From Thermodesulfovibrionia bacterium (GTDB taxonomy: Bacteria; Nitrospirota; Thermodesulfovibrionia; Thermodesulfovibrionales; SM23-35), in assembly GCA_041500225.1 (NCBI GenBank), contig JBGQLV010000006.1, forward strand, positions 8,271 to 72,270: a stretch of DNA of 64,000 nt, in the 5' to 3' direction. The notes beneath the pieces are model-generated. The model was not told where the DNA came from and did not search any database. It saw nothing but the letters and a program-made list of their open reading frames with translations. The position numbers and the translations under genes were made by a program. This document shows positions 2,463-44,281 of this stretch, piece by piece. Positions within the stretch are counted from its first letter, which is position 1. The number at the start of each line of letters is the position of its first letter.

Positions 2463-2843
2463 CTATACTGGTATTTCCAATAGAAGCTTATCATAATTTA
2501 CTATTGGCATTATCTTTTCCCTGCCATTTGATTTGCCCTTTTCGAGTTCTATAAGTCCCAGTTCTGCAAGATAATGGACATCATCTGCAACGTTTTTAAG
2601 ATTTCTGTTAAGCAGTTTTGCAAGCTCGTAAATAGATGCGGGATGCTTTTCCTTGATGACCTTTAGTATTTTCACTCTCTCAGGTGTGATAGCCTTTCTC
2701 ATTATTTCAAGGCTCTCAAAGTATATCCCAGGTCTTCTTTTCCTGACCTTGTCTCCACGTTCAAGCCTTTTCATAACAGACTTTGCACCATTAAGCACTT
2801 CTTCAATGCTCTTAATCCCTATGGTTACATTTTTAACCTTCAT
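2463..2843 (-). CDS. winged-helix DNA-binding protein (HVO_A0114/TumA-like), paralogue of 1842-2216
   Basis: Full-length ORF with an ATG start. Same conserved blocks as 1842-2216. Lies convergent to it across the tRNA-Leu gene. Confidence 0.65.
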   Translation of the reverse strand: MKVKNVTIGIKSIEEVLNGAKSVMKRLERGDKVRKRRPGIYFESLEIMRKAITPERVKILKVIKEKHPASIYELAKLLNRNLKNVADDVHYLAELGLIELEKGKSNGREKIMPIVNYDKLLLEIPV

Positions 2844-2964
2844 CTTTCATCACCTCTCTTAAGTCTTTGTAAAAGTCTTTAAATAGTTTCTCTATGCTCT
2901 CAAATTTATAGGGTATCTCCTTATTTCCGTGATGCCTGTGATCTCCTTTATCTTTAAGAAGTTT
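2833..2964 (-). pseudogene. possible 3' remnant of a TumE/DUF6516-like toxin gene
   Basis: 43 sense codons without a usable start (KLLKDKGDHRHHGNKEIPYKFESIEKLFKDFYKDLREVMKDEG). They end in a TAA that overlaps the ATG of the downstream wHTH gene by 11 nt, which is a typical toxin-antitoxin overlap. Homology is recalled, not tested. Confidence 0.3.
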
Positions 2965-2982
2965 TCATATTATACATAACAA

Positions 2983-3414
2983 CTATGAACCGGCCTTAAT
3001 CTTTTTCTTGATATGCTCCTCAATCATAAAAAGGGTAGTCAGTTCTTCTCCCACAATCCTCTGCACTCTAACAAGCTTTTCATGAGGGATATCCCTGCTG
3101 AGTCTGTGGCATGTAAAGTTAACACAGATGACAGGGCGGGGACTGAGAGAACATCCGTGTTTTGTGAGGAAAGCGCAAAGATCAGGCTCTTGTGTTTGTA
3201 TGTGGATGGATACACCGAGCAGAAGGTTAATCAAAATAAGAACGCTGTCGCATTTATAGCCGGTATGTACGCTGCAGCACGTTCCCTCGCCATTTACTGC
3301 ACAATCAGCACATTCTTGAACTATCCCTGAAGTAACCATTTCATTTTTTGATATTTCTATGTTGCGATCCAATTTTTGTAAAAGGTTCGTGAGCGTAGAA
3401 TCATTACGTAACAC
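2983..3414 (-). CDS. YkgJ/UPF0153-like cysteine-cluster protein
   Basis: CADC-x8-CC, then later C.FL...GC.L.PRPV.C..F.C. This is the pattern of the CxxCxxCC zinc/iron-chelating family (from memory). Confidence 0.55.
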   Translation of the reverse strand: MLRNDSTLTNLLQKLDRNIEISKNEMVTSGIVQECADCAVNGEGTCCSVHTGYKCDSVLILINLLLGVSIHIQTQEPDLCAFLTKHGCSLSPRPVICVNFTCHRLSRDIPHEKLVRVQRIVGEELTTLFMIEEHIKKKIKAGS

Positions 3415-3469
3415 GTGTTCGAAAGACGCATAGAGTTTATAAGCTGAGGCAACTATGTCGGAAATACTT

Positions 3470-4255
3470 CTACTGGAAGGTTCGATTGTGCAAATACTCC
3501 TCGATGCCTGTTTGTGACCTCAATCTCTGATAGATAATGTCAGCTATCTTAAAGAGGTTAACTGTGTCTTCCTTGTTATACATTGTGAGCAAATCCAGTG
3601 CCTCGCTGCTTCCCCTTCTTGCAGACTCCCAGAGCTTTACGGCATCATAACCATTTATGCCCCTGACAGCTTCGTGTCTTTCGATTCCAAGATATGTCTC
3701 AAGCTTCTTAAGTCCATTTTTAAACCCGAGTCTCCTTGAACCAAAGCAGATGTCAAAATGAGGGACATCGAATTTCAAATCAGGCATTGACCTCTTGAGA
3801 AAAGGGATGTCAAAAGCAGAGCCGTAAAATGTTATAAGGTATTTATATCTGGAAAGTTCTTTTTTTAGATTCTCACGAGTAAGGTTCATATCCCTTAAAA
3901 AACATTTGTAGTCATAGCCGTCGTATATGCCGACCATAGTTGTATAGCCTCCGCTCTCAGGCATAAGACCGTTTGTCTCTATGTCTAAGCAGGCTGCTTC
4001 TCCTTTGAAGATATCAAAAAGCCTCCAATGTTCTCTTCTTTTGATAGCGCTTGCGAAATATTCAGCATTGGCATTATCAAGCTCGCTTAAGGCATAAGAC
4101 AGGCATTTATCATAGAAGCTTTTTTTATTATGGTTCATGAAGTTTAAATCCGAAGTATTTATGAAATCATCCCATGTTAATATTCCACTCCTCCAGAGTC
4201 TTTTTTCAAGCCTTTCGCCGATGCCGCTTAAAATGCTGAATGTATTTCTTATCAT
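3470..4255 (-). CDS. RNase H-fold predicted 3'-5' exonuclease (YprB/COG3359-like)
   Basis: LDIETNGL (exonuclease motif I) and ITFYGSAFDIPFL. Length and layout match YprB-type proteins. Confidence 0.65.
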   Translation of the reverse strand: MIRNTFSILSGIGERLEKRLWRSGILTWDDFINTSDLNFMNHNKKSFYDKCLSYALSELDNANAEYFASAIKRREHWRLFDIFKGEAACLDIETNGLMPESGGYTTMVGIYDGYDYKCFLRDMNLTRENLKKELSRYKYLITFYGSAFDIPFLKRSMPDLKFDVPHFDICFGSRRLGFKNGLKKLETYLGIERHEAVRGINGYDAVKLWESARRGSSEALDLLTMYNKEDTVNLFKIADIIYQRLRSQTGIEEYLHNRTFQ

Positions 4256-4285
4256 GTGCCTTTGTTATTTATAAATTTTTTTTAT

Positions 4286-5980
4286 TTAAGTCTTAGAAAG
4301 ATTTTTAATCTTTTGTAAACCCTCGGCTGCCCTTTCATTAGCCGGGTCGAGTTTTATTGCCTTTTCAAAGGTATTTTTTGCCCTCAGGTTAAAACCAAGC
4401 TGCAGATAAATATAGCCGACCTCAGCCATATAATCAGCGTTAAACGGTTCAATCTTAAGTGCCTTACTTATAGCCTTCTCTGCCTCACCCAATTTTATAT
4501 TTTTCGTTAGTGATAAACCGTGGTAGAAGTGATAAGCTGGTACCGAACTATCGAGATAAGCAGCCTGCCCGAATAACTCTGCTGCCTCAGTATAAGCTCC
4601 TTTTTTGAATGCATCTTTGCCTTCTTTGAACCTGGCCCTTGCTATCTCTAATTTGTTACTTTCAATCTTTGCAGGTCTGTTTGATAAACTACGGTCATAT
4701 TCCCTACGCATCTTTGGGTCAGAGAGGATTTTATATGCATCGGTTATTTGAGAAAAGATCATATTCAATTTGTTCTTGAGGGTCTCAGAGGGCAGATAGA
4801 AATGTTTATCGGGATGGAACTCCTTTGCGACCTTATAATATGCCTTCTTAATCTTATCCATAGTAGCCCATTTCTCGATTCCAAAGATGCCATAGTAGTC
4901 TGTAATTTCAATCCTCTTATAAAGATCTTCAACTTTCTTAATGAAGGCTGAATCTACCTCTATTTCTGGTTCTTTCATTATCTCCTCGTATGTTTTATCT
5001 TCTGTTAAACCTTTTTCCCTGAGTTCGATTATTTTTGTACTGAGCAGGGCATAAAGGGTCTTCATCGTCTGGAAATTATCTAAGGGTGAGATGGAAAGGA
5101 TTTCATGAATATTACGCTTACCATTTATCAGGGAAAGGATATTTTTATCTTTATTGTCGAGGTTTATGTCCTGGAATAAGTTCATCGGGTCAGTAGAATA
5201 ATAGAGTATTGTATCCCCGGGAGGCATAGCATTTTTAATATGTGTAAGGCTATTTATTCTCTTTATTCCACGATATATAAGGTTTGCAGCACTGAGTTTA
5301 AGTGTTATGACCTCGTCTGAAGGGAGGGGGCCTTCTATGAAAATAAATTTACCATCTTCGCACTGAAAGAGGCTCAGGATGATCTCTTCAACCTGATGCC
5401 TTACTATCCAGATGACATCTTCTGGTTTGAGATAGCCGAGTTCAACAAGAGCCACACCCTGACGCTTTCCTGTTTTCTTCATAATATCAACTGATTGGTA
5501 ATACTGGTCAATAGTAAGCCTGCCGGCCTTTAACATAACCTCTCCGAGCCGGTCTTCTTCCTTGTTTGATGTGGCAAAGATCATATCCCCATTTTTCATG
5601 TATATTCTTTTAGATGTAGAACCATTTCTTATCTCGAGTATCCCGTCCTTTTCACTCCTGTGCAGGTCAAGGAAGATGTCAGCGAGCAGATAATGTTTTA
5701 AAAAACCAGAGATTGATCTCCTTTCAATTCCGACCCTGAGGTGCGAATTAACCTTCTCCGACCATACAATCCTGCCATCGATATCCAGGTTGAGGTCTTC
5801 GAGCTTCAAATCAATGACAGAGCCTGGTGTTACAGGTGGTGTATTCTCGATAGATAAGCCGATGCCTCCCAGGGAATAATCAATGGTATTAGCCTGAAAG
5901 GAATTTCCTCCAATTGATAAACGAAATCCTGATTTGAGTCTGTATCTCTTAAATCGCCTTTTGTCTTTACATGATAGCAT
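4286..5980 (-). CDS. PilZ - DUF4388-like - J domain - TPR multidomain protein
   Basis: N-terminal PilZ signatures (RRFKRY, DYSLGGIGL), a central DUF4388-like region, a J domain with HPD (AKEFHPDKH), and C-terminal TPR-like repeats. Confidence 0.75.
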   Translation of the reverse strand: MLSCKDKRRFKRYRLKSGFRLSIGGNSFQANTIDYSLGGIGLSIENTPPVTPGSVIDLKLEDLNLDIDGRIVWSEKVNSHLRVGIERRSISGFLKHYLLADIFLDLHRSEKDGILEIRNGSTSKRIYMKNGDMIFATSNKEEDRLGEVMLKAGRLTIDQYYQSVDIMKKTGKRQGVALVELGYLKPEDVIWIVRHQVEEIILSLFQCEDGKFIFIEGPLPSDEVITLKLSAANLIYRGIKRINSLTHIKNAMPPGDTILYYSTDPMNLFQDINLDNKDKNILSLINGKRNIHEILSISPLDNFQTMKTLYALLSTKIIELREKGLTEDKTYEEIMKEPEIEVDSAFIKKVEDLYKRIEITDYYGIFGIEKWATMDKIKKAYYKVAKEFHPDKHFYLPSETLKNKLNMIFSQITDAYKILSDPKMRREYDRSLSNRPAKIESNKLEIARARFKEGKDAFKKGAYTEAAELFGQAAYLDSSVPAYHFYHGLSLTKNIKLGEAEKAISKALKIEPFNADYMAEVGYIYLQLGFNLRAKNTFEKAIKLDPANERAAEGLQKIKNLSKT

Positions 5981-6879: not shown

Positions 6880-8136
6880 ATGAATCGGGTTGTTGTTACA
6901 GGTATCGGTGCTGTTAGTCCTCTTGGAAATTCATTTAATGAATCCTGGGAGGCAACAAAGGCAGGACTATCAGGCATAGCGCCTGTAGCAAAATTTGATG
7001 TCTCTGATGTAGGTTGGAAAGTCGCAGGTGAATTGAAAGGATTTGATTCAGGGAAATATCTTTCTCTGAAAGAGATAAACCGTCTTGACCCTTTCGTGCA
7101 TTATGCTGTTGCAGCAGCAATGATGGCGGCAGAAGATGCAGGATTGATTTCTTTTAACTCGTCACTCGTCACTCGTCACTCGTCACTCGATATGGGCGGG
7201 GTTATCATTGGTTCAAGCCGCGGTGGAATAAGCACAATAGAAAAAGAATTGCAAAGAAAGTACTTATCAGGTATTTCGCGTCATTCATCAAGAACGTCTG
7301 CCTATCTTATGTCTTCAACAACAATCAGCATGGCCTCGTCTTATGTTGCTCAAAAACTTGGAATAAAAGGCTACTGTCTCGGCATATCCAATGCATGTGC
7401 GTCAGGCACAAGTGCAATAGGTGAAGCATATAGATTAATCAGGTCAGGCTATCAGGGCCCTGTGCTATGTGGTGGTGCTGAGGCTCCTGTATGCAGGCTA
7501 TGTATTGAAGGATATGGTTCATCGGGTGTTTTATCTAAGGTCAATAATTCCTCTGCGAGCAGGCCGTTTGACAGGACAAGGGATGGGTTTGTCCTGTCAG
7601 AAGGGGCGTGTGTCTTTGTTCTGGAAGATTATGGGAATGCATTAAAAAGAGGTGCAAGGATATATGGGGAGATTGTAGGCTATGGGAATACAACAGATGC
7701 ATTTCATCAAACAATGCCATATCCGGAAGGTGAGGCAAAGGCAATAAAGACTGCAATAGATGAGGCAGGATTGAAGCCTGGAGATATTGATTTTATTAAT
7801 GCACATGGTACATCAACACCCTTAGGTGATAAAACAGAGACTGAGGCGATAAAGCTGTCATTTGGCAATAGAGCCTATCATATCCCTGTAACTTCTGTTA
7901 AATCCGTAACAGGCCATATGCTTGCTGCATCCGGTGCCTTTGAGGCAGCTTTTACCTTAATGAGCATGAACGAAGGAATTATCCCGCCTACTATCAACCT
8001 GAAAGAGAGAGACCCTGAATGCGATCTTGACTATGTGACTCAGTTAAGAAGATCCGAGGTTATATTTGCTATTTCTAATTCGTTCGGTTTTGGCGGAGTA
8101 AATGCAGTGCTGGTTTTTAAAAGGCTGAATGTCTGA
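6880..8136 (+). CDS. fabF: 3-oxoacyl-ACP synthase II
   Basis: Starts VVVTGIGAVSPLGN. Catalytic Cys in NACASG, His residues in HQT and NAHGTSTPLGD, and C-terminal SFGFGG. Collinear with E. coli FabF as I recall it. Confidence 0.9.
   Translation: MNRVVVTGIGAVSPLGNSFNESWEATKAGLSGIAPVAKFDVSDVGWKVAGELKGFDSGKYLSLKEINRLDPFVHYAVAAAMMAAEDAGLISFNSSLVTRHSSLDMGGVIIGSSRGGISTIEKELQRKYLSGISRHSSRTSAYLMSSTTISMASSYVAQKLGIKGYCLGISNACASGTSAIGEAYRLIRSGYQGPVLCGGAEAPVCRLCIEGYGSSGVLSKVNNSSASRPFDRTRDGFVLSEGACVFVLEDYGNALKRGARIYGEIVGYGNTTDAFHQTMPYPEGEAKAIKTAIDEAGLKPGDIDFINAHGTSTPLGDKTETEAIKLSFGNRAYHIPVTSVKSVTGHMLAASGAFEAAFTLMSMNEGIIPPTINLKERDPECDLDYVTQLRRSEVIFAISNSFGFGGVNAVLVFKRLNV
7157..7189 (+). repeat. heptanucleotide tandem repeat (ACTCGTC x4.7) inside fabF
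   Basis: ACTCGTC ACTCGTC ACTCGTC ACTCGTC ACTCG read directly. Translated in frame as SLVTRHSSL, in a loop longer than the E. coli counterpart. Confidence 0.95.
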
Positions 8137-9094
8137 ATTCCCTCATTGCCTCATCCTCCGGGGTATCGGTATCGTTTCTGTATTTAGGTGAAAAATGCAT
8201 AACAGCAAGATGTTTAACACCTGCCTCCCTCGCAATCCTTCCGGTAATATTTGCTGTAAGATGAAACCTTTCTAATGCCCTGTCCCTGTCTTTTCCCATA
8301 AAATATGCCTCGCAGTAAAGTGTGTCAGATTCACTTACGAATTCAATAATCTTTTTAATATTTTCATCGGATATTGATACATCGGTAACATAAGAGATCT
8401 TCTGACCCTTTGTTATCTTTGCGATATCTCTAATCCCTTCAAGCTTATATCTCCTGTTAGAGACCACAAGCTCTGTATCTCCTGATCTATGCTCCCTGAT
8501 AGCCTTTTTCAATTCTGAAAGCCAGGGACCGACAGGGAGTCCCATCTCCTTTAAGGAAGCCTTATTAATATTAATATGAAATTCTTCCTCGAGTGAGAAG
8601 GCGAGGCATGGTACCTGATGATCTAACTGGATTGCCTTTATCGTAAATAGAGGCTCTCTCAAGATAATACCGCTGAATTCAGATATCTTACAGTCTATCC
8701 TTTTAAAGCAGTTTTCAGCATGGAAGCTCGATACGATTATCTTATCTCCATTTATGCAATGGACCTCTATCTTCATCGGATATTCCTTTATAAGGTTCCA
8801 TGTGTAGCCTCTGAGCTTGCCTTCTACACAGTCAGTTATATTTGATGGTCCATACACCCTCAAAGGTATCTCCCTCCTTAAAAGTGCCCTGAGAAGAGTA
8901 TCAAATCCTATGAAGTGGTCTATATGTGTATGGGTTACAAAGACATCTGTTATCTTCTGAAGGTCGCCGGGCTTGAGTCTGTGAATACTGCCTATATCGA
9001 ATAAAAATGCCCTTCTTTCCCTCATTATCCTGACAAACAGGGAAGGGTCTTCAAAGGGGCTATTTACAAGACTGTGAATGAATGTAGGTTTCAT
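8117..9094 (-). CDS. MBL-fold metallo-hydrolase (RNase Z/BN-like)
   Basis: HTHIDH (HxHxDH) metal-binding motif about 55 aa from the N-terminus. Size is typical of RNase Z-like proteins. Confidence 0.7.
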   Translation of the reverse strand: MKPTFIHSLVNSPFEDPSLFVRIMRERRAFLFDIGSIHRLKPGDLQKITDVFVTHTHIDHFIGFDTLLRALLRREIPLRVYGPSNITDCVEGKLRGYTWNLIKEYPMKIEVHCINGDKIIVSSFHAENCFKRIDCKISEFSGIILREPLFTIKAIQLDHQVPCLAFSLEEEFHININKASLKEMGLPVGPWLSELKKAIREHRSGDTELVVSNRRYKLEGIRDIAKITKGQKISYVTDVSISDENIKKIIEFVSESDTLYCEAYFMGKDRDRALERFHLTANITGRIAREAGVKHLAVMHFSPKYRNDTDTPEDEAMREFRHSAF

Positions 9095-9204
9095 GAGTGA
9101 TTATATCCTATTGTGATATAATAATACCAAAATCAGCAGCATATAGCGGAGGGCTTAGGGCATAGAGCCTTTACCCTTTGTTAGTGCTGTATAGCGGAGG
9201 TAAT

Positions 9205-10200
9205 ATGTCTGAGCTTAGAAAGGATCCGATATCCGGTCGATGGGTTATTATCTCTGTGGAAAGAGGTAAAAGACCAACGGATTTTATTTCTCCTTCCCAG
9301 AGAAAGAGGGGTGGTTTTTGCCCATTCTGTCCGGGTAACGAATATACTACACCAACAGAGATAATGGCTTTCAGACCTTCCGGCGCAAAGCCGAATTCAC
9401 CGGGGTGGACATTAAGAGTTATGCCTAATAAGTTCCCGGCCCTTCAGATACAAGGAGACCTGAATAAGACAGGAGAAGGCATTTTCGATAAGATGAATGG
9501 GATAGGTGCCCATGAGGTCGTAGTGGAGACACCTGATCACATGCAATCTCTCTCGACGATGCCGTTGAAGGCAGTTGAGGACGTACTGTGGGCATACTAT
9601 ATAAGGCTTACTGATTTGAGGAAGGATAAGCGTTTTAAGTATGTACTGATATTCAAAAATGAAGGTGACGCTGCGGGTGCATCCCTTGAGCATTCCCATA
9701 CCCAGTTAATCGCACTGCCAATTATTCCTAAGTTGGTAAAAGAAGAGACCGATGCAGCAAAACGTTATTATGAGTTGAAGGAGAGATGTATTTTTTGTGA
9801 TGTTATTAGTCAGGAACTGGAATACAGGAAGAGGGTAATATATGAAAACTCAACGTATGTTGCACTTGCACCATTTGCACCAAGGGCCCCTTTCGAGACA
9901 TGGATATTACCCAAGAAGCATGAGTCGAGCTTCTCTCCGCCGGACAAGAACTTCTCGGATCTTGCAGAAATTCTCCAGGTGATTCTGAAACAGATGGACA
10001 GGATACTCGAGGTGCCTCCTTATAATTTTGTAATACATACTTCTCCATTTTATGATGAGGTAAACGATTACTACCACTGGCATATAGAGCTTGTGCCTAA
10101 GCTGACAAAAATTGCAGGATTTGAATGGGGATCGGGTTTTTATATTAATCCTACACCTCCGGAGGAGTCGGCCAGGTTTATGAGAGAGGCAAAGATATGA
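9205..10200 (+). CDS. galT: galactose-1-phosphate uridylyltransferase-like (GalT/HIT class)
   Basis: FCPFCPGNE zinc knuckle and the HSHTQL nucleotidyl-transfer motif. ATG 9205 is preceded by GGAGG; the upstream TTG at 9178 is less likely. Confidence 0.85.
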   Translation: MSELRKDPISGRWVIISVERGKRPTDFISPSQRKRGGFCPFCPGNEYTTPTEIMAFRPSGAKPNSPGWTLRVMPNKFPALQIQGDLNKTGEGIFDKMNGIGAHEVVVETPDHMQSLSTMPLKAVEDVLWAYYIRLTDLRKDKRFKYVLIFKNEGDAAGASLEHSHTQLIALPIIPKLVKEETDAAKRYYELKERCIFCDVISQELEYRKRVIYENSTYVALAPFAPRAPFETWILPKKHESSFSPPDKNFSDLAEILQVILKQMDRILEVPPYNFVIHTSPFYDEVNDYYHWHIELVPKLTKIAGFEWGSGFYINPTPPEESARFMREAKI

Positions 10201-25329: not shown

Positions 25330-25496
25330 AATAGGAACGTTATGATATCGGCTTCTTCCTGTAATCGTGAATTTTATATTTCTCCTCACAATGCAATATT
25401 ACAATCAATAATCAATAAAAAATACAAATTTACTTTCTCCAACTTGGGTAGGATTGATTGTACGGTCAAAATTCCCAGAAGAAGGCAAATAAAAAG

Positions 25497-25510
25497 GGGT
25501 CAAATCTTTA
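25497..25510. repeat. left inverted repeat flanking the RAYT-like gene
   Basis: GGGGTCAAATCTTT, the exact reverse complement of 26530-26543. Confidence 0.9.
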
Positions 25511-25513
25511 CAA

Positions 25514-25543
25514 TTGACATATTTAATTGAGAAATGCTATAAA
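25514..25543 (+). promoter_or_regulatory. candidate promoter of the RAYT-like gene
   Basis: TTGACA (25514-25519), an 18-nt spacer, then TATAAA (25538-25543). The ATG is only 7 nt further on with no RBS, so the mRNA may be leaderless. Confidence 0.3.
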
Positions 25544-25549
25544 TGATGC

Positions 25550-26530
25550 ATGGCGAGGCCGTTAAGGATACAGTATCCCGGAGCTGTATACCATGTGACT
25601 TCCAGGGGTAACGAAAGAAAGGAGATATTTAGGGATGATAAAGACCGGCAAACCTTTCTTGAAATCCTTTCGCAATCCATAAGGATTTATAACATAAAAC
25701 CTTACAGTTATGTCCTCATGGGTAATCATTTTCACTTTCTTTTAGAGACACCGTTGGGTAATCTTGGTGAATTCATGCGACATTTCAATATAACCTATAC
25801 GGGATATTTTAATCGGAGACACAGAAGAGTAGGGCATCTATATCAGGGCAGGTACAAAAGTATTTTGGTGAATAAAGACGAATATTTATCCATACTGTCA
25901 AGATATATACATCTCAATCCTGTCAGGCTAAAAAACATGAGGAAGGAACCGGAGATCGAAAAAGTGGAATATCTTGTAAACTACCGATGGAGCAGTCTTC
26001 CTGGATATATAAAGAGAGGGAAAAGGGAGGAATTCATAGATTATGAGATGGTATTGGAAGAATATGGGGGAGATAATGCCAGGGGAAGAAAAATATACAA
26101 AAACAGAATATATTCAGATATAAAAGAGGGGATTGAGATAAAAGACAAAGTAATAGGTCAAAGCATCTTGGGTGGAGAAGAATTCGTAGAATGGATTAAG
26201 GAGAGATTTCTAAAAGGAAGGCAGGATAGAGAGAGTCCATCTTTAAGAGAACTGAAGAGATACCGTGCAAAAGAAGTGATAATGAAGGCAATAGAAAAAG
26301 TAACTGGGAAAAGCCTTGAAGAGATAAAGGCATCAAAGGGAAGACTTAGGCAGATTGCAACGGATTTATTATATCGGATAGGAGGTTTAAAGGGTGTAGA
26401 AATAGGAAATTTAATGGGAGTGGATTATAGCACAGTGAGTCAGGGGAGAAAGAGGTTAAGGGGTAAAATGCAAAAAGATAAGAGCTTGCGAGAGATGGTG
26501 AGTAAGATTGAAAGGAATTTGTCAATTTAA
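25550..26530 (+). CDS. IS200/RAYT-like Y1 (HUH) transposase with C-terminal DnaA-domain-IV-like HTH
   Basis: YHVTSRGNERKEIF, HUH motif in MGNHFHFLL, and the catalytic Tyr region GHLYQGRYKS, as in COG1943/REP-associated tyrosine transposases. The C-terminal ~90 aa resemble the DnaA C-terminal HTH (from memory). Confidence 0.8.
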   Translation: MARPLRIQYPGAVYHVTSRGNERKEIFRDDKDRQTFLEILSQSIRIYNIKPYSYVLMGNHFHFLLETPLGNLGEFMRHFNITYTGYFNRRHRRVGHLYQGRYKSILVNKDEYLSILSRYIHLNPVRLKNMRKEPEIEKVEYLVNYRWSSLPGYIKRGKREEFIDYEMVLEEYGGDNARGRKIYKNRIYSDIKEGIEIKDKVIGQSILGGEEFVEWIKERFLKGRQDRESPSLRELKRYRAKEVIMKAIEKVTGKSLEEIKASKGRLRQIATDLLYRIGGLKGVEIGNLMGVDYSTVSQGRKRLRGKMQKDKSLREMVSKIERNLSI

Positions 26531-26543
26531 AAGATTTGACCCC
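26530..26543. repeat. right inverted repeat flanking the RAYT-like gene
   Basis: AAAGATTTGACCCC. It overlaps the stop codon. Confidence 0.9.
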
Positions 26544-37336: not shown

Positions 37337-37352
37337 CTTTGTAATGAGCATC

Positions 37353-38186
37353 CTACTGCTCCACAAGTTCCACACGCCTGTTTTTGGCCTTTCCTTCTTC
37401 GGTTTTATTGGAGGCTATGGGGTTCAGTGAACTTACCCCGTATGCCTTAAGCCTTGATGAGGCTATGCCGTGTTTCGATACAAGCGAATTAGTCACGGCT
37501 ACGGCGCGGTCCTTTGAGAGCTTCATGTTGGCGTCGAAAGATCCCGCGTTGTCGGTATGGCCGACGACATAGACCTTAAGCGCGTTGTTGTTTTTGAGGA
37601 GTTTGGCAATCTCGGCTATCGCCGCGTCGGATTCGGGCTTTATCTCGGCCTTCCCGGTGTCGAAGTAGATTCCATATAAAGAAACATGGCCCGTCGCATT
37701 GATGTCGTTGCCCATCGCCTCGGCGTTGGCCTCGACCTCCTGTTTCATGACTTCTTTTTCAACAATGGTGAGTCTGTACAAGGTCGGCCAAGCCGATACC
37801 GTCACCCATGTTTCTTTGCCGTCTTTCTCAAGCTTGACAGTGGAATTCCAAGGGCGTTCACCTTCAAACAGCACCTTGCCCCCTATTTTTGTGAGTGCGT
37901 TTTGGATATTTCTGACCACCTTGAGGTCTCCCGGCCCCTTGGCACCCTGGTTGAGGTTATATTGTATATAATACTTATGGCCCTCTACGGAGACTTTTTT
38001 GCCGTTCTGGACAAAGAATTCGTGTTTATCAAAATCCTTTTCACTGTAATCGATGATATGAAAATCCGGCATCCTCGTCAGCAGGGGGTGGTCTTTGCTC
38101 CCTTGCTTATCTTTTTCGGCGGCGAAGACGTTAAAACCGATCAACACAAACAACATGCATAAAATTACGGCAATAACCTTGTTCAT
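37353..38186 (-). CDS. OmpA-family protein
   Basis: Signal peptide. C-terminal OmpA-like domain (VVGHTDNAGS ... NRRVELV). Confidence 0.8.
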   Translation of the reverse strand: MNKVIAVILCMLFVLIGFNVFAAEKDKQGSKDHPLLTRMPDFHIIDYSEKDFDKHEFFVQNGKKVSVEGHKYYIQYNLNQGAKGPGDLKVVRNIQNALTKIGGKVLFEGERPWNSTVKLEKDGKETWVTVSAWPTLYRLTIVEKEVMKQEVEANAEAMGNDINATGHVSLYGIYFDTGKAEIKPESDAAIAEIAKLLKNNNALKVYVVGHTDNAGSFDANMKLSKDRAVAVTNSLVSKHGIASSRLKAYGVSSLNPIASNKTEEGKAKNRRVELVEQ

Positions 38187-38328
38187 TATAAAGCCTCCTC
38201 AATGAGATTTTTATAAGGATACTGCGAACCGTTTGAAATGTAAAGCGTGGGTATGTCAACCCTGCGTATACGGGTTGTCTCGAACGATCTTACTTTTCGT
38301 TTGGCTTTTCATTTCTCTCTTCAATTTT

Positions 38329-38376
38329 ACCGAACAATGAGTTAAGCGGCTTGGCCGCTGGAACGTCTGGTTGGGC
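38329..38376 (-). other. attC site of the last recognisable cassette
   Basis: Plus strand: ACCGAAC-AATGA-GTTAAGCGGC-TTG-GCCGCTGGAAC-GTCTG-GTTGGGC. The stem has one bulged position. It starts 20 nt after the stop of 38397-38735. At 48 bp it is short for an attC. Confidence 0.6.
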
Positions 38377-38396
38377 GATCATTTTTCCATTCTCTG

Positions 38397-38735
38397 TCAC
38401 TTGTTAAGTTGACTAAATTGGCAACGTCCCCTATTTATCAACGCAACGCTTACTTCTAACTTTAGGACATGAGATGGCGGTAATCTATGTAGAAGAGAAG
38501 GGCGTTCGGTGTTCGGTATTTTTTTGCCTCTCTTCCCGTTGAGTTTGTCAAACTTGACCCTGTGTTCAAGTGGAGGATATATAAAGCCATCTTTGTTTTT
38601 ATATTTAGTGATCCACTTGCATGCGTTATCAAAATTAGCCGCAGGCATGACCTGACCACCATCAAATTTGATTTGTGACGCATAATCTAAGAACCCAAAT
38701 AAGTCCGATATAATCATTTTATCAACGACCAACAT
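38397..38735 (-). CDS. cassette-borne hypothetical protein
   Basis: The ORF is followed directly by an attC. I placed the start at the ATG encoding MLVVDKM; codons upstream in the track ORF run through repeat sequence. No motif recognised. Confidence 0.4.
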   Translation of the reverse strand: MLVVDKMIISDLFGFLDYASQIKFDGGQVMPAANFDNACKWITKYKNKDGFIYPPLEHRVKFDKLNGKRGKKIPNTERPSLLHRLPPSHVLKLEVSVALINRGRCQFSQLNK

Positions 38736-38817
38736 CAGCCGACCCCGCCACAGACGCCGGACTGAAAAGGAAAAGCGGCTATTCGAGGTCGGCCGGATGA
38801 ATTTGTTATCCCAAATG

Positions 38818-38906
38818 AGAACTCGTGAAGGGGTCAAATCTTTGATATTGACAAATATGTCACAGATAAAGATTTGACCCCATTCCCTGTTTTCTTCTCG
38901 AGTTCT
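38818..38906. repeat. gene-less hairpin copy (REPIN-like) of the RAYT-flanking inverted repeats
   Basis: GGGGTCAAATCTTT (38830-38843) and AAAGATTTGACCCC (38868-38881), with a 24-nt loop. Outer stem AGAACTCG (38818-38825) / CGAGTTCT (38899-38906). Confidence 0.85.
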
Positions 38907-39244
38907 GCCCCTTACCCGATCCTGGAGCTAACTGGATGACGCATTATGTGTGAGCCATATCTTTGATGAGGACGGTATAAGGGTTCTGAATTGTTTCTAT
39001 GCCGTGGAGAACAAGACCGAATGGTCTCTCCACTGTCGTCGGTAGCACGGAAGATACGCAACGTTCCGTGCTGCAAGGCTATTGAGCATCGATAAGTGTT
39101 TGGTGCAGACTTTTGTTCTGATACCGTGGTGGAAACCAAGTCGGAGCTATTGGACAATCTTTAAAAAAATAAGGAAATGGAATTTTCTATTTTTATTTCC
39201 GATCAGGTTCGCTTTTTCTCTTGACAGTGCGGGGCCTTATAAGT

Positions 39245-39251
39245 GTTGGAC
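39245..39251 (-). other. R'' box of the attC belonging to the 39276-40415 cassette
   Basis: Plus-strand GTTGGAC lies 24 nt past the stop. It is the exact complement of the cassette's first bases (GTCCAAC at 40505-40511). The rest of this attC is not resolved. Confidence 0.5.
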
Positions 39252-39275
39252 GCCTTCTCAATGCTTTTATTGATG

Positions 39276-40415
39276 CTATCTGCTCATGGTCATACATTCA
39301 TTTTTTTGTAAACACTGTGAGCACAACCCCTTGTCGCGATATTCATAAAACTTACCCAAACAACTACTGGCTGTTTTACATGAATCATTACGCGTACAGA
39401 GCGAACACTCATTCCCACTTTCAACGTATTCATAAAACTTACCAAAACAGCCTTTTAGGCTATAATCCTTTTGGGGCCTGATTTTCTCAAGTGCCCTCGT
39501 AGCCTCTTCTCTTATTGAAGAATCATCATCCCTTAAGGCAAAAATCAGAGGTTCAACTGCGCGTGGGTTTTTTATCTCCCCAAGTGCCTTTACCGTTTTC
39601 TGGCGGACAATCTGCCTTTCATCCTTTAGAGCCTCTATCAATAAGTCCAATGCACTGGAATCTCTTATCCCTTGCTGAACCATTGCATTTAGAATAGCTT
39701 GGCAAACTGCCTCACTGTGTTCACTTGTTGCATGCTTCACCTGTCGTTTCCAATTATCAACAATAAAAAAATCAGGTTTTTCTGATGTATACTTATACAT
39801 ATCTGAAAAGGATAGTGTTTCATACTCTAATACATCAAGTAACGGTTTTATAATTTTAAAGTCACCTATTTTATTTAATGAGTTAATAATAGTTATTTCC
39901 ATGTTTTTGGTGTCATTCAGTTGGTCTTTAACCGAAAGTGCAGCTGTCATGCCCTCATTAGTATTTCCTCGTAGGAACAGAAGTTCTACTACAGTCCATA
40001 AGCTTTGCCACATCCCAAAACGAAGCTTACCATTCCAAATAGAGAGTGCTTGAAGTAACGCCCATACATGATCATTCTTTATTTCCCCTAAAAATTCAAC
40101 TGCTTTAAATACAAATTGCTTTTCGCTCAGAAGTGCGATTAACGACTCACTAAATCGAGGCTGTTTGATTTTGCTTAATGCTTCCGAAGCTTTTCTTTTC
40201 ACTGATTCAGATTCACTCAGTTCATTATTCATCAGGAACTTGATTGCCTCTGATGCCACTTTTGAATCGCCGATGTCGCACAATGCCAATGCTGCTTCTA
40301 TTTGAATATCTAAGTTTACTTTAGAGCTTAAGACTTGCATTAGTCTTTGAATGTTTCCTGTTTGCTTTAACTTGGCTATATTAGGTGGGCCAAAAAATTT
40401 TTCGATGATTCCCAT
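39276..40415 (-). CDS. HEAT-repeat protein with duplicated Cys-rich C-terminal motif (integron cassette)
   Basis: Own RBS (GGAGG). The N-terminus MGIIEKFFGPPNIAKL parallels the neighbouring cassette protein. HEAT/PBS-lyase-like repeats (VRQKTVKALGEIKNPRAVEPLIFALRDDD). The tail carries C.GKFYEY...G..CS.C.....C twice. Confidence 0.7.
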   Translation of the reverse strand: MGIIEKFFGPPNIAKLKQTGNIQRLMQVLSSKVNLDIQIEAALALCDIGDSKVASEAIKFLMNNELSESESVKRKASEALSKIKQPRFSESLIALLSEKQFVFKAVEFLGEIKNDHVWALLQALSIWNGKLRFGMWQSLWTVVELLFLRGNTNEGMTAALSVKDQLNDTKNMEITIINSLNKIGDFKIIKPLLDVLEYETLSFSDMYKYTSEKPDFFIVDNWKRQVKHATSEHSEAVCQAILNAMVQQGIRDSSALDLLIEALKDERQIVRQKTVKALGEIKNPRAVEPLIFALRDDDSSIREEATRALEKIRPQKDYSLKGCFGKFYEYVESGNECSLCTRNDSCKTASSCLGKFYEYRDKGLCSQCLQKNECMTMSR

Positions 40416-40504
40416 AGGTTGCCTCCTTTCATGTGTATACCCGCAATGACGAATAAGGTTATAGACAACAATGCCGTCTTTTTCATAATTATCATTTTAT
40501 CTTC

Positions 40505-40569
40505 GTCCAACAATGAGTTAAGGGACGCGGCGGCTTTTTACCGCGTCCCTTTTGAACGACTGGTTGTAC
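40505..40569 (-). other. attC site of the 40637-41518 cassette
   Basis: Plus strand: GTCCAAC-AATGA-GTTAAGGGACGCGG-CGGCTTTTTAC-CCGCGTCCCTT(TTG)AAC-GACTG-GTTGTAC. There is a 3-nt bulge on one arm. It starts 67 nt after the stop codon. Confidence 0.8.
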
Positions 40570-40636
40570 GCTTTCATTTGTTCTTTAATCTTCCTCATTA
40601 AACGGTCGCTGTTGTCCCTATTTTCCTTCCCTATAG

Positions 40637-41518
40637 TTATCCCTGCCAATTTCCTATGCCATCCCAGATAAATTCCAGATTTCGAGAGGCACCCCGGATA
40701 GCGCATCGGCTGGTAAACTCTGCATGAGCCGCCCGCATTAAGTCCATCCCCCCTTTTTGGTTTAGTATTTTACCAATGAGACGAAGTTCTTGCTCTGGCG
40801 CTCCGCCTTGTCCTTGAACAAATCCTTGTGGATGCTCCCGATAAATGGTTACCATTTTTTCAATGGCGTCATCAAATTCGTACTCCTGCGGAACTGTTTG
40901 CACAGTTCGGTGTTCTTTAAGTGCACGCTCGACCTCCGGCCCTCCGATGCACTTCAGGGCACCTGCAACATCTATCGATATGTCATTGTCCGAGAGAGCG
41001 TTGATTAGCGATTCTATTGAACTTGCAGCACCGATTTTTCCCAGCGCATTTGCTGACATTCTTCGCACATTTATGTCTTCGTCCTTTAGCGCTGAGATTA
41101 GGGGTTCAACAGCGGGTGTCCCGAATTTTGCAAGTGCTTCTGTAACCACGTCACGCACATGCCCGTTAGAATCTTGCAGCGCTAAGATGAGCGGCTCAAC
41201 AGCGGGTGTCCCGAGTTTTGCAAGTGCTTCTGCAGCCGCTTCACGCACCAATAACAGTGCTGAGATGAGCAGCTTAGCAGCGTGTGGCCCGATTTTTGCG
41301 CGTGCTTCTGCTGCGTCATACCCCAATAAGGCTGCGTCCTTCATTGCTGAGATGAGCGGTTTAACGGCCCTCACATCTCCAACTTTACCAAGTGCTTGTG
41401 CTGCCTTTGCGCGCACATTTGCTTCTTTGTGCCGTAAGGCTTTAATTAAACCCTCAACATCTTTCTTGGCAAGCATCTTTTCCACATTCGGTGGGCCAAA
41501 CAAATCAAAGATTCCCAT
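40637..41518 (-). CDS. HEAT-repeat protein (integron cassette)
   Basis: Own RBS (GGAG). Starts MGIFDLFGPPNVEKM. Has repeated ..VR..AA.ALGK.G...AV.PLI.AL.D units and a C-terminal ~90 aa of unknown type. Confidence 0.75.
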   Translation of the reverse strand: MGIFDLFGPPNVEKMLAKKDVEGLIKALRHKEANVRAKAAQALGKVGDVRAVKPLISAMKDAALLGYDAAEARAKIGPHAAKLLISALLLVREAAAEALAKLGTPAVEPLILALQDSNGHVRDVVTEALAKFGTPAVEPLISALKDEDINVRRMSANALGKIGAASSIESLINALSDNDISIDVAGALKCIGGPEVERALKEHRTVQTVPQEYEFDDAIEKMVTIYREHPQGFVQGQGGAPEQELRLIGKILNQKGGMDLMRAAHAEFTSRCAIRGASRNLEFIWDGIGNWQG

Positions 41519-41654
41519 CTTATTTCTCCTTTATCTACGAGCCGCGCGCCGAGCAAAAGGGGAGCGGTTGCTGTTCGATTCTTATATTTTTACCGCACAA
41601 AGCACTTGCAGCGGTCATAACATAAGAGTTTCGCCTTCTCTGTTTATTTTGTTC

Positions 41655-41719
41655 GTACAACGCCGCTGCTCAGGGGTGGCGCGGTTTTTACGCCATCCCT
41701 TGGAGCAGACAGGTTAGAT
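41655..41719 (-). other. attC site of the 41885-42457 cassette
   Basis: Plus strand: GTACAAC-GCCGC-TGCTCAGGGGTGGCG-CGGTTTTTA-CGCCATCCCTTGGAGCA-GACAG-GTTAGAT. The stem is imperfect, with bulged bases on one arm. Confidence 0.75.
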
Positions 41720-41884
41720 CTTTCAGGTGATTCACCAGAACCATTTCTACTTGATCCACAAGCGACGTATATAATATAACCGCAACCTACCCCTTAATGC
41801 CGTTCAGAGATTCTTCAGCAAACGGCGAACTGTGTATTAACTGATAACCACCACGAAAGGTGCCTACAAAAATTTGTGTTATAC

Positions 41885-42457
41885 TTATTTATTGCTGGCT
41901 TCAGGCACGAGTACGGTCGCATCGCCAAATGTTAGTTTGCACATCCCCGACTTCTGGAGACTGTGTAAGGTTTCAGTATCAATACTAAAGGCTAAGCAAA
42001 GTGAACAGCGGTTCTTTAGAAGCGTCAGGGTTTGGGGCATACCTTCATTCCGCTCAAGCCGATAGCCGTCGCCGGTGGTTGCCTGCTCTGTGGCAGTACC
42101 TTTGAAACCTAGTGTCGAAGTGTAAACGCATGTACCCTTAGGTCCAGAAACGCCCACCCCAAGAAGCATGCCATCTCCCACCGCTCCGGTAACAGCGATC
42201 TGTTTTGTTACCAACGTGAGTGACTTCTCATCAGGGCTGGAGAAGAGAGCTCTAATCTCTAGATATGGGAAGTCAGTGCTCATGGCTCGGCTTTTCGTGC
42301 CGTCCGTACACTCGATCTCTTGGCTGAGGTTTGCGGAGAGTTGGGTCACCGACCACTTGCCAGGTTCTTGTGCGGCACAAACAGTAGACACAAGAATAAC
42401 AAGGGTCAGGACGAGCCCAGACATTCTAAAAAAATAGTGACTATTTGTTCTTATCAT
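41885..42457 (-). CDS. secreted hypothetical protein (first integron cassette)
   Basis: ATG 42457 is preceded by AGGAG. Signal-peptide-like MIRTNSHYFFRMSGLVLTLVILVSTVCAAQE. The 40 extra codons in the ORF track read through a palindromic block. Confidence 0.55.
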   Translation of the reverse strand: MIRTNSHYFFRMSGLVLTLVILVSTVCAAQEPGKWSVTQLSANLSQEIECTDGTKSRAMSTDFPYLEIRALFSSPDEKSLTLVTKQIAVTGAVGDGMLLGVGVSGPKGTCVYTSTLGFKGTATEQATTGDGYRLERNEGMPQTLTLLKNRCSLCLAFSIDTETLHSLQKSGMCKLTFGDATVLVPEASNK

Positions 42458-42470
42458 GAGATTCTCCTTT

Positions 42471-42618
42471 CTATCTAATGCGCGAGTTGAGCAGTGGGCC
42501 GGAGGCCCATCTGTTTCGAACTCCTGGTTCTCCCCTCGCGGAGCGCATTCACCCTGTTCGCTGCTCAACTCGCGCATTCTCCCCGAGCGGAGCGAGGGGA
42601 GAACCAGTTATTAGATAG
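42471..42618. repeat. 148-bp block of interleaved inverted and direct repeats at the expected attI position
   Basis: CTATCTAAT/ATTAGATAG at the ends. GCGCGAGTTGAGCAG (42480-94) pairs with CTGCTCAACTCGCGC (42561-75). GGTTCTCCCCTCGC (42526-39) pairs with GCGAGGGGAGAACC (42592-605). Direct repeat TTCTCCCC..GCGGAGCG at 42528 and 42577. Confidence 0.85.
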
Positions 42619-42625
42619 TTACAGA

Positions 42626-42654
42626 ACTTTAGCAGAAAGTTTTAATCCAGTCAA
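42626..42654 (-). promoter_or_regulatory. candidate cassette promoter (Pc-like)
   Basis: Minus strand: TTGACT, 17 nt, TAAAGT, pointing into the cassette array. Based on sequence resemblance only. Confidence 0.25.
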
Positions 42655-42672
42655 TAGCAATTAAAAGCAATA

Positions 42673-42701
42673 TTGACATATCTGCTGGATATAATTATAC
42701 T
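42673..42701 (+). promoter_or_regulatory. candidate intI promoter
   Basis: TTGACA (42673-78), a 17-nt spacer, TATACT (42696-701), 50 nt upstream of the intI ATG and back to back with the Pc candidate. Confidence 0.4.
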
Positions 42702-42751
42702 TTTTAAAATGACTAATACGCTATTTATGATGTTAGTCATATTCAAATTCT

Positions 42752-44281
42752 ATGCAACCTATACCAAGTGATATTTTGACTCAATTCGAGGCCGTCCTGA
42801 AAAAAAGGGCAGTGCCTGTTTCCCGCCACGCGGATTATAGGAAGTGGCTCCGGTATTATCTTGATTTCCGAGGCAAATATACGCTTCCTGATTCCAAATC
42901 AGAACATATGCGTTTGTTCATCGAAAAATTGCAAAAAAAGAATCAGACGCCCGAACAGCAAAAGCAGGCAGCGCATGCACTGTCTCTTTATTTTGAGATA
43001 CTGAATGCAGAGACAAAGGCTGCGACAATATCCACATCGTCTCAATACCGGGCAACCACGGAGGGATTGCCCCTACAGGTATCGGAGGCAGCAACAACCC
43101 CCGCCACCCCTCGTAGCGAGTCTTCGCGCAGAGTCGCTACGACCTTTACTAAGGGGGAATCTTCCAATGACTTATCGAGGGCTGAGGCGATAACGCCGAT
43201 ATATTCCCCTCTTTCGGATATGCAACAGCCGCAGCGCGTACCGGAAACAGAGCCTGCTATGCCAAAGAAATCGGCTGGCAGTCGTTATAATGAATGGCGT
43301 TGTCTGGAGAAATCCGGATCTCCAGCCTGGGACAAGATCATCGACAATCTGGCGGCAGAGATCAAGATACGGCACTATTCCCGAAAAACGCTCAAAGCTT
43401 ATGCGGATTGGAGCCGCAAATTCCAGAGCTACCTGCGAAACAAACCGCCTGATGAACTGTCGGCAACGGATGTTAAGGCTTATATCACGTATCTGGCTGT
43501 GAAATGCAAAGTGTCTGCATCAACGCAAAACCAGGCGTTCAACGCTTTGTTGTTTTTGTTCCGCCATATTCTGAAGAAAGATTTCGGCGATCACAAGGAC
43601 ATTCCCCGTGCGAAGAAATCGAAGTATATCCCCGTGGTTCTTTCACGAAAGGAAATAGACGCTGTCTTGAAACATCTGGGGCATCCCTACGATCTTGCGG
43701 TCAAACTGTTGTACGGCTGCGGGCTTCGTCTCTTCGAATGCGTGACATTGCGGGTAAAGAATTTCAATTTCGACGCCGGAATCCTTACGGTACATGGAAA
43801 GGGCAGTAAAGACCGGACCGTGCCAATTCCACAGACGATCATGCCGGAATTAACGGCACAGTTTGAGGCAATAAAAAAACTTCACGATGAGGATCTTGCG
43901 GCAGGCTACACGGGCGTGTTTCTTGAAGATCAACTCGAAAAGAAATATCCGAAAGCCGCGAAGGATTTCATCTGGCAATGGTTTTTCCCGCAGCAATCGT
44001 TAACTTTCGTGGAGGGAACCAAGGAACGGCAGCGGTATCATCTTCATGAAACACACGTTCAGCAAGCGCTATACGAGGCTGTCCGGCGGGCGAAGCTCAC
44101 GAAGCGGGTCACCTCCCACACCTTTCGCCACAGTTTCGCCACGCACCTCTTGCAGGCCAACTATGACATCCGCACAATTCAGACGCTGCTCGGCCACAGC
44201 GATGTAAGGACTACGATGATATATACCCACTGCATACCGAGCAGGACTGTAAAGGAAGCTAAAAGCCCTCTTGATTTTTAA
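42752..44281 (+). CDS. intI: integron integrase with extended N-terminus
   Basis: C-terminal HTFRHSFATHLLQANYDIRTIQTLLGHSDVRTTMIYTH. IntI-specific insertion QLEKKYPKAAKDFIWQWFFPQQSLTFVEGTKERQRYHLHE. Core-binding domain IRHYSRKTLKAYADW ... STQNQAFNALLFLF. 509 aa, against the usual ~320-340. Confidence 0.9.
   Translation: MQPIPSDILTQFEAVLKKRAVPVSRHADYRKWLRYYLDFRGKYTLPDSKSEHMRLFIEKLQKKNQTPEQQKQAAHALSLYFEILNAETKAATISTSSQYRATTEGLPLQVSEAATTPATPRSESSRRVATTFTKGESSNDLSRAEAITPIYSPLSDMQQPQRVPETEPAMPKKSAGSRYNEWRCLEKSGSPAWDKIIDNLAAEIKIRHYSRKTLKAYADWSRKFQSYLRNKPPDELSATDVKAYITYLAVKCKVSASTQNQAFNALLFLFRHILKKDFGDHKDIPRAKKSKYIPVVLSRKEIDAVLKHLGHPYDLAVKLLYGCGLRLFECVTLRVKNFNFDAGILTVHGKGSKDRTVPIPQTIMPELTAQFEAIKKLHDEDLAAGYTGVFLEDQLEKKYPKAAKDFIWQWFFPQQSLTFVEGTKERQRYHLHETHVQQALYEAVRRAKLTKRVTSHTFRHSFATHLLQANYDIRTIQTLLGHSDVRTTMIYTHCIPSRTVKEAKSPLDF

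Follow-up and report, generated by a model that had tools for sequence, protein, structure and literature searches.

Evidence for a structurally complete chromosomal integron of the long-IntI type in a Thermodesulfovibrionia bacterium

Does this Thermodesulfovibrionia bacterium carry a complete integron, with integrase, recombination sites and gene cassettes, or a tyrosine recombinase gene that lies by chance beside palindromic repeats? The question is raised by 64,000 nucleotides (nt) of contig JBGQLV010000006.1, referred to here as the window, in which a preliminary description made from the letters alone had placed an integrase gene followed by at least four oppositely oriented cassettes. 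Our analysis favours the first answer, a chromosomal integron of the long-IntI type with all its structural parts, at a probability of roughly 0.9. Counted from the integrase side, the array holds a 125-nt cassette without an open reading frame (ORF), a secreted protein of 190 amino acids (aa), two HEAT-repeat proteins of 293 and 379 aa, an orphan attC and a 106-aa protein; that is, four intact cassettes, a fifth whose attC is interrupted by an insertion sequence (IS), and the orphan attC. The earlier number of cassettes was thus right, and the gene-less cassette, the IS-cut attC and the fourth hairpin (attC D) had been overlooked.

The integrase gene is read away from the array:

42752-44281, + strand: intI, integron integrase of the long form, 509 aa, with matches to TIGR02249, PF13495 (two stretches) and PF00589

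As judged by sequence comparison, its predicted product is a member of the IntI family. The NCBI integron-integrase model TIGR02249 matches with 379.6 bits against a cut-off of 265 and is covered from position 1 to 313 of 315, whereas with the XerC and XerD models the score is about 150 bits and the cut-offs lie near 330. The closest solved structure is the Vibrio cholerae integrase IntIA (VchIntIA, 2A3V), aligned over residues 204-499 with an E value of 3e-70. This alignment runs without a gap across the IntI-specific I2 insertion, where LEKKYPKAAKDFIWQWFFP...RYHLHE is paired with LKEKYPNAPYEFRWHYLFP...RHHMNE, and on to the catalytic IYTH. The segment QLEKKYPKAAKDFIWQWFFPQQSLTFVEGTKERQRYHLHE, quoted in the preliminary description as the insertion that distinguishes IntI from other recombinases, lies inside the 42752-44281 ORF, and the earlier naming of the protein as IntI is supported.

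The full IntI core corresponds to residues 196-508 and leaves an extra N-terminal part of 195 residues. Within this part a second SAM-like core-binding domain is found at residues 12-82 (PF13495, 28.7 bits against a cut-off of 27), and the linker of about 110 aa between it and the core has no family match. A BLASTP self-comparison of the two SAM-like domains gave no alignment, and the N-terminal one is visible to the Pfam profile only. Homologues of the integrase are abundant, with about 8000 retrieved. The best 120 of these are 353-517 aa long (mostly 440-517 aa), nearly all of them span the whole query, and many are already named integron integrase by NCBI or JGI. Among species-representative genomes, the labels of the metagenome-assembled genomes (MAGs) place the long form in Nitrospirota (Thermodesulfovibrionia), Desulfobacterota, Nitrospinota, Elusimicrobiota and anammox Planctomycetota. 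Related loci are labelled L001, L018 and so on in what follows, 80 species-level related loci having been compared. One of them, L030, a contig of a Thermodesulfovibrionales MAG, holds two long-form intI genes (3275-4630 and 7962-9351) about 4.7 kb apart, each with an attI motif.

To the left of intI, every plausible ORF from 42457 down to 38397 lies on the minus strand, as had been claimed, and gene calls on public contigs from the same population agree. Four hairpins with attC architecture occur among these ORFs:

41719-41655, - strand: attC A, ATCTAAC-CTGTC-TGCTCC...GAGCA-GCGGC-GTTGTAC (R'' 41719-41713, R' 41661-41655), 165 nt past a stop codon
40569-40505, - strand: attC B, GTACAAC-CAGTC-GTTCAAAAGGGACGCGG...CCGCGTCCCTTAAC-TCATT-GTTGGAC (R'' 40569-40563, R' 40511-40505), 67 nt past a stop codon
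38376-38329, - strand: attC C, GCCCAAC-CAGAC-GTTCCAGCGGC...GCCGCTTAAC-TCATT-GTTCGGT (R'' 38376-38370, R' 38335-38329), 20 nt past a stop codon
38811-38720, - strand: attC D, GGATAAC-AAATT-CATCC...GATG-TTGGTC-GTTGATA, with a fold of -13.2/-13.5 kcal/mol that ranks among the best in the window

Sites A, B and C had been described before, with bulged bases on one arm only, and both their positions and this asymmetry are confirmed. The former are read directly from the sequence, and single-stranded DNA folding of the bottom strand gave z scores of -3.7 (A), -4.9 (B) and -2.3 (C), with the R boxes paired, the 5-nt spacers unpaired and the surplus bases confined to the '' arm. As a chance control, both strands of the 64 kb were scanned for AAC...GTT hairpins with unpaired spacers of 4-6 nt. 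The top hairpins (-13 to -15.6 kcal/mol) all fall within 38.7-41.7 kb and include A, B and D, and the best one outside the array region reaches -11.6 kcal/mol. The attC-shaped hairpins cluster on one strand, and they share sequence as well as shape: B and C both carry AAC-CAGnC-GTTC...CTTAAC-TCATT-GTT, and AAC-CAGnn-GTTC is common to B, C and an inner site of the gene-less cassette.

The cassettes bounded by these sites are as follows:

42603-42479, - strand: cassette 0, 125 nt, ORF-less and structured, starting TTCTCC and ending ...CTCAAC-TCGCGC-A|TTAGAT
42478-41661, - strand: cassette 1, ORF 42457-41885 (190 aa, signal-peptide-like N-terminus), ending in attC A
41660-40511, - strand: cassette 2, ORF 41518-40637 (293 aa, HEAT repeats, PF13646, 1.5e-34), ending in attC B
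40510-39245, - strand: cassette 3, truncated, ORF 40415-39276 (379 aa, HEAT repeats), retaining only the R'' box GTCCAAC
38725-38335, - strand: cassette 4, ORF 38717-38397 (106 aa), ending in attC C

In the cassette numbering of the preliminary description attC C was misplaced, as it belongs to a different cassette. By analogy with its family, IntI would bind the folded bottom strand of an attC hairpin, recognise it by shape (paired R box, unpaired spacer, extra bases on one arm) and recombine it with a double-stranded attI or another attC at G|TT. Recombination at that point would make the first six bases of a cassette the complement of its own R'' box, and this complementarity is present in cassettes 0, 1, 2 and 3. 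The three pairs reported earlier, TTAGAT with ATCTAA, TTGTAC with GTACAA and TTGGAC with GTCCAA (39251-39246), are all there as given. The fourth comes from cassette 0, whose TTCTCC start complements both of its internal R'' boxes, GGAGAAT (42582-42576) and GGAGAAC (42533-42527). The same rule is obeyed by relatives, in 4/4 cassettes checked in L018 and also in L020.

Between intI and the array lies an A+T-rich gap of 150 nt with divergent promoter-like sites, and next to it the site of cassette entry:

42598-42616, - strand: attI core ATCTAATAACTGG|TTCTCC, with the crossover between G42604 and T42603
42626-42654, - strand: candidate Pc promoter from a consensus scan, TTGACT-17-TAAAGT with TG before the -10 box, pointing into the array
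42673-42701, + strand: candidate (predicted) Pint promoter, TTGACA-17-TATACT, 11/12 consensus matches, pointing at intI

About 30 related loci share a conserved core, rTCTAATAACTGG|TT, placed 128-340 nt upstream of the intI start codon. The sequence past its GTT differs in each of these loci (it is usually GTTRRRY-like), and blastn homology between the window and the related loci ends at 42602-42611. Because the core is conserved, divergence begins directly past the GTT and homology stops there, the attI crossover is placed at G42604|T42603 and not at 42478. The latter position, previously taken as the start of the first cassette, survives as a cassette boundary and not as the attI junction. 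The stretch 42473-42614 had also been considered as an attI site or a degenerate attC (ATCTAAT...ATTAGAT); this idea was dropped, as relatives show the stretch to consist of attI and cassette 0.

The predicted Pc lies about 10 nt upstream of the attI core and 22 nt from the crossover, and a TTGACy-17-TAnnnT sequence stands at the same distance from the core in relatives, for example L008, L012, L017, L030, L033 and L049. A conserved outward sigma-70-like promoter facing the cassettes is therefore a candidate on sequence grounds. Pc would fire leftwards across attI into the minus-strand array, and intI would be transcribed rightwards. In L016, L027, L013 and L020, two more direct copies of GACTAATAA precede the attI core, spaced about 12 nt apart (tGACTAATAAcgGACTAATAAactGTCTAATAACTGGTT). 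These copies, which the window lacks, may be additional binding repeats for the integrase, and the extra N-terminal domain might conceivably recognise them.

A number of observations weigh against this reading and need to be set beside it. A search of the array against Rfam 15, at E values up to 5, returned no match. Cassette 0 ends in a non-canonical ATT instead of GTT, so that an A|TT separates it from cassette 1. The start of cassette 4, TTGATA, fails the complementarity test with its own R'' box, GCCCAAC. Cassette 3 has its R'' box (GTCCAAC, 39251-39245, 24 nt past the stop codon) with no attC stem directly behind it, the attC being split by an IS remnant. Finally, about 15 contigs of the same population, drawn from NCBI MAGs, JGI and Logan assemblies, agree in both the set of cassettes and their order, and no gain, loss or shuffling of a cassette was seen among them. 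With the exception of the Rfam result, these points would fit an integron by descent that is now a frozen relic, in which turnover has ceased and the integrase is kept for some other reason or has not yet decayed. We regard such a relic as possible but unlikely. Against it stand an intact intI of 509 aa, full length with respect to both the IntI model and VchIntIA through IYTH, and the canonical, strongly folding attC A and B. Identity within the population is also weak support for arrested turnover, since within a clone a sedentary chromosomal integron typically stays stable and one near-clonal population cannot reveal turnover.

The interruption in the attC of cassette 3 is put down to an insertion sequence. 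Two features fill the space between the box and attC D:

38902-39244, + strand: non-coding remnant of the right end of an IS1111-type element, directly after the AAC of the cassette 3 R'' box; it may reach to about 38812
38830-38880, no strand assigned: REP-like palindrome (REP, repetitive extragenic palindromic), GGGGTCAAATCTTT...AAAGATTTGACCCC, a self-match and a solo copy within the array

The stretch 39244-38902 is 79% identical to L020 2256-2612 (E 1e-79), and it is judged non-coding because the two differ by indels of 1, 2 and 5 nt. In L020 the homologous segment is the distal part of a 540-nt non-coding region 3' of a transposase gene of the IS110/IS1111 family (PF01548 and PF02371). 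At its end stands one subterminal inverted repeat, ACTTATAAGGCCC; the other, GGGCCTTAATAAGT, is found past the transposase start. The full L020 element (945-2612) thus has a transposase and imperfect subterminal inverted repeats of 13-14 bp, and within an attC it sits where the window copy does: it is immediately preceded by GCCCAAC, the first cassette's R'' box (a TIR-domain protein, start TTGGGC), and the rest of the attC follows beyond the IS. In both copies the element begins where the AAC of an R'' box ends. From CCAAC on the sequence is common to the two loci, and the bases before it track the start of each cassette, which is independent proof that GTCCAAC is a real R'' box. The earlier assignment of this box to cassette 3 is therefore kept, with the amendment that an IS remnant stands where its stem was to be expected. 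No transposase ORF is present in 38300-39300, and the window copy also lacks the left end; lacking a DEDD transposase gene, it counts as the remnant of such an element, not as one in its own right. Inside it, CCAAACACTTAT (39112-39101) imitates the CCAAC|ACTTAT junction, much as a seekRNA guide segment might do. The proposed history includes two later events in the array: an IS1111-type element of the attC-targeting kind inserted after the AAC of the cassette 3 box and since lost its transposase, and a 125-nt cassette came to occupy the first position. An uninterrupted copy of cassette 3 was sought for its original attC and not found, and no homologues of the 379-aa HEAT protein above 35% identity turned up.

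What lies beyond the remnant bears on the status of attC D. Homologues of this site sit in the arrays of L030 and L015, and no cassette start TTATCC matching its R'' box exists in the present array, so that D either was orphaned when a deletion took its cassette or is the body, now detached, of the cassette 3 attC. The orphan reading is mildly favoured because the relatives of D carry xxxTAAC boxes of their own. The palindrome at 38830-38880 matches two further places in the window, 25493-25524 and 26517-26543, which flank an IS200-like Y1 transposase ORF (25550-26530, 326 aa, PF01797), and GGGGTCAAATCTTT-type palindromes and Y1 transposase together look like a system of the REP/RAYT type (RAYT, REP-associated tyrosine transposase). 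A similar arrangement is seen at L001 707-1740, with GGGGTCAGCCCTTG repeats around a 316-aa Y1_Tnp.

Cassette-wise variation had been expected between related genomes. It is complete at the level of species and absent within the population: from the crossover onward, the cassette content of species-level relatives is wholly different. By tblastn the 80 related loci share no cassette protein with the window and no flanking gene, except for a SurA homologue elsewhere in L026. The pieces that do recur in other arrays are attC types C and D and cassette 0, and L039 holds a cassette end homologous to that of cassette 4. Two apparent cases of turnover were dropped. Contig breaks proved to be contig ends overlapping in the palindromic cassette 0 (42478-42600), and spanning contigs have the same order. 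The left flank of L001, where a 359-aa protein and a Y1 transposase stand in place of SurA, diverges inside the OmpA coding region and not at an attC. L001, a MAG contig of the same population, matches the window over 12.7 kb, with 41 of 42 differences in the 3' half of OmpA (37352-37862 against L001 2982-3500), which suggests recombination or mis-assembly through an OmpA paralogue.

Composition and surroundings raise a further alternative, that the platform arrived recently, as part of a mobile island, and has not long been resident in the chromosome. The gene next to the last attC is part of this question:

37353-38186, - strand: OmpA-family gene (PF00691), adjoining the last attC, G+C 0.487

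Values of 0.48-0.50 are found for intI, cassettes 1 and 2 and this OmpA gene against 0.39 on both flanks; 0/80 species-level relatives share the flanking genes at the integron; and IS and REP-like debris lies within the array. We consider an island doubtful, and clearly less probable than a relic. Transposition genes, terminal repeats and a tRNA beside the integron were not found, and each side is immediately bordered by housekeeping genes, one by GAPDH and a PPDK-like gene and the other by SurA, which supports the earlier view that the integron is chromosomal. The missing synteny is weak evidence because many of the related loci are on short contigs. By cassette, G+C is 0.483 (cassette 1), 0.484 (cassette 2), 0.379 (cassette 3) and 0.408 (cassette 4); the differences noted by eye in the preliminary description are thus real between cassettes 1 and 2 on the one hand and cassettes 3 and 4 and the flanks on the other, but do not extend to cassettes 1 and 2, which are alike. 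The OmpA gene may or may not belong to the array: its G+C sets it apart from the flank, but downstream of it there is neither an attC nor an ACCGAAC box.

That the locus is no integron at all, and instead holds an Xer-like or phage-type tyrosine recombinase beside terminator-like or REP-like palindromes, is highly improbable: the palindrome at 38830-38880 is indeed REP-like and related to Y1 transposase hairpins, but the IntI-specific model and insertion are both present, the other palindromes have AAC/GTT boxes with 5-nt unpaired spacers and one-sided bulges, six-base complementarity occurs four times, and attI is conserved with divergence exactly at the GTT.

Within the integron as read here, cassette 0 is the most unusual part. 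Its 125 nt fold as DNA with -40.2 kcal/mol (z -5.85), and a profile of the 125-135-nt element picked out 27 nearly full-length copies, which are distributed over 16 of the 80 related loci. All of these are in cassette orientation upstream of intI except one (L013 12697-12827, + strand). Seven copies lie in L018 (3240-9814) and four in L013, and L039 has one at 621-751. The six L018 copies past the attI-adjacent one each directly follow a conventional attC whose R' box is the element's own GTTCTCC. RNAalifold on 15 copies predicts 32 pairs, 19/32 of which show compensatory double changes, and the third base of the GGAGAAY box covaries with the base that opens R' (AAT with ATT, AAC with GTT). 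The long stem, which is strongly supported, competes with a smaller attC-like fold at the 3' end (GGAGAAC-CAGGA-GTTCG...CTCAAC) that resembles attC B and C.

The element extends well beyond the genomes compared above. A metagenome scan with a 19-base pattern matched at least 120 loci, and among the matches listed at least 69 contigs carry the element, at least 51 of them nearly full length. The 5' end is intact in 86 of the copies examined: in 16 the neighbour is an attI motif, in 47 it is a hairpin scored as attC, and among the 23 unscored ones several neighbours are visibly attCs. Since the copies abut attI or attCs, at G|TT, the element behaves as a cassette moved by IntI. MAG labels place its hosts in Nitrospirota, Nitrospinota and Desulfobacterota; it often lies directly at attI, and in L018 it stands behind almost every gene cassette. 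A non-exhaustive literature search found no description of it. Tentatively, and with somewhat less than even confidence, we propose that cassette 0 represents a previously undescribed family of minimal, self-propagating integron cassettes spread among long-form IntI integrons. It could be a selfish passenger of IntI, or it could be a functional module that serves as an insulator, a processing site or, through its competing fold, a brake on excision.

The cargo of the remaining cassettes is, as stated in the preliminary description, without known function. Neither the 190-aa protein of cassette 1 nor the 106-aa protein of cassette 4 has a match in Pfam, NCBIfam or PADLOC. The two HEAT-repeat proteins match generic HEAT/PBS-lyase repeat models only, far under any equivalog cut-off, apart from weak matches to the HEAT-ARM model of PADLOC. 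Ribosome-binding motifs (AAGGAG/AGGAGG) precede ORFs 2 and 3, for which they had been noted before, and ORF 1 as well. In L020 the first cassette (2621-3082) encodes a TIR-domain protein (PF13676, ThsB-like); integron cassettes reportedly often carry genes for anti-phage defence, and this cassette fits that pattern. Elsewhere in the window, the sole Rfam match at the gathering threshold is a tRNA gene at 2283-2364.

The superintegron of V. cholerae, with VchIntIA and its VCR (Vibrio cholerae repeat) attC sites, is the natural point of comparison. Both have an attI crossover at G|TT, attC types that are partly homogeneous, cargo of unknown function and attC hairpins in which an R box and an unpaired spacer are combined with extra bases on a single arm; the candidate Pc of the window, divergent from intI, would complete the likeness. 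In contrast to the more than 100 cassettes of the superintegron, the present array is very short (four intact, one interrupted and an orphan attC), its integrase has the extra N-terminal part of about 195 aa, and its host belongs to Nitrospirota and not to Gammaproteobacteria. Longer integrases have been noted before: in a deltaproteobacterial IntI group, 'clade 15', a gene fusion common to its members adds about 120 aa (Nemergut et al. 2008, PMC2426708). Likened by description, that group and the present enzyme have in common an IntI longer than normal with an intact recombinase core, and the homologues found here include Deltaproteobacteria/Desulfobacterota. The present analysis differs in identifying the extension as a second PF13495 SAM-like domain plus linker and in extending the long-form family to Nitrospirota, Nitrospinota, anammox Planctomycetota and Elusimicrobiota.

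The IS remnant and the gene-less cassette also have known counterparts. Among the attC-targeting IS1111 elements are ISPa21, ISKpn4 and ISPst6 (Tetu & Holmes 2008; Post & Hall 2009). Members of this group have a lengthy non-coding stretch 3' of tnp and inverted repeats in subterminal position, and they insert at an attC end; those that target one attC end carry a guide RNA in the downstream non-coding region (PMC11187229). The L020 element agrees in its DEDD/IS110-family transposase, non-coding region, inverted repeats and insertion at the R'' end of an attC. The window copy, likened to the named elements by features, has the homologous right-end non-coding region at the same attC position but is without transposase and left end. 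ORF-less gene cassettes with promoter activity are known from the integrons of oral Treponema (PMC6557892). Cassette 0 resembles them in the absence of an ORF, in boundaries at IntI crossovers and in having its own attC, and differs in that it measures only 125 nt, consists almost entirely of a covarying hairpin, occurs across several phyla in up to seven copies per array, and has no evident promoter.

As an integron, the locus adds one more chromosomal example, from an uncultured anaerobic lineage and with uncharacterised cargo, and its value is that of a catalogue entry. It is not surprising in itself, given that homologous integrases are already annotated as integron integrases. With an attI core and a candidate Pc defined for a large family of long-form IntI, recombination assays become possible. 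The IS remnant documents, from the environment, the insertion of an IS1111-type element precisely at an attC R'' box. Among the side findings, the widespread minimal ORF-less cassette has the most potential: at 125-135 nt and without a gene, it is a very small natural substrate on which to ask what IntI needs in an attC and whether a cassette can act selfishly at all.

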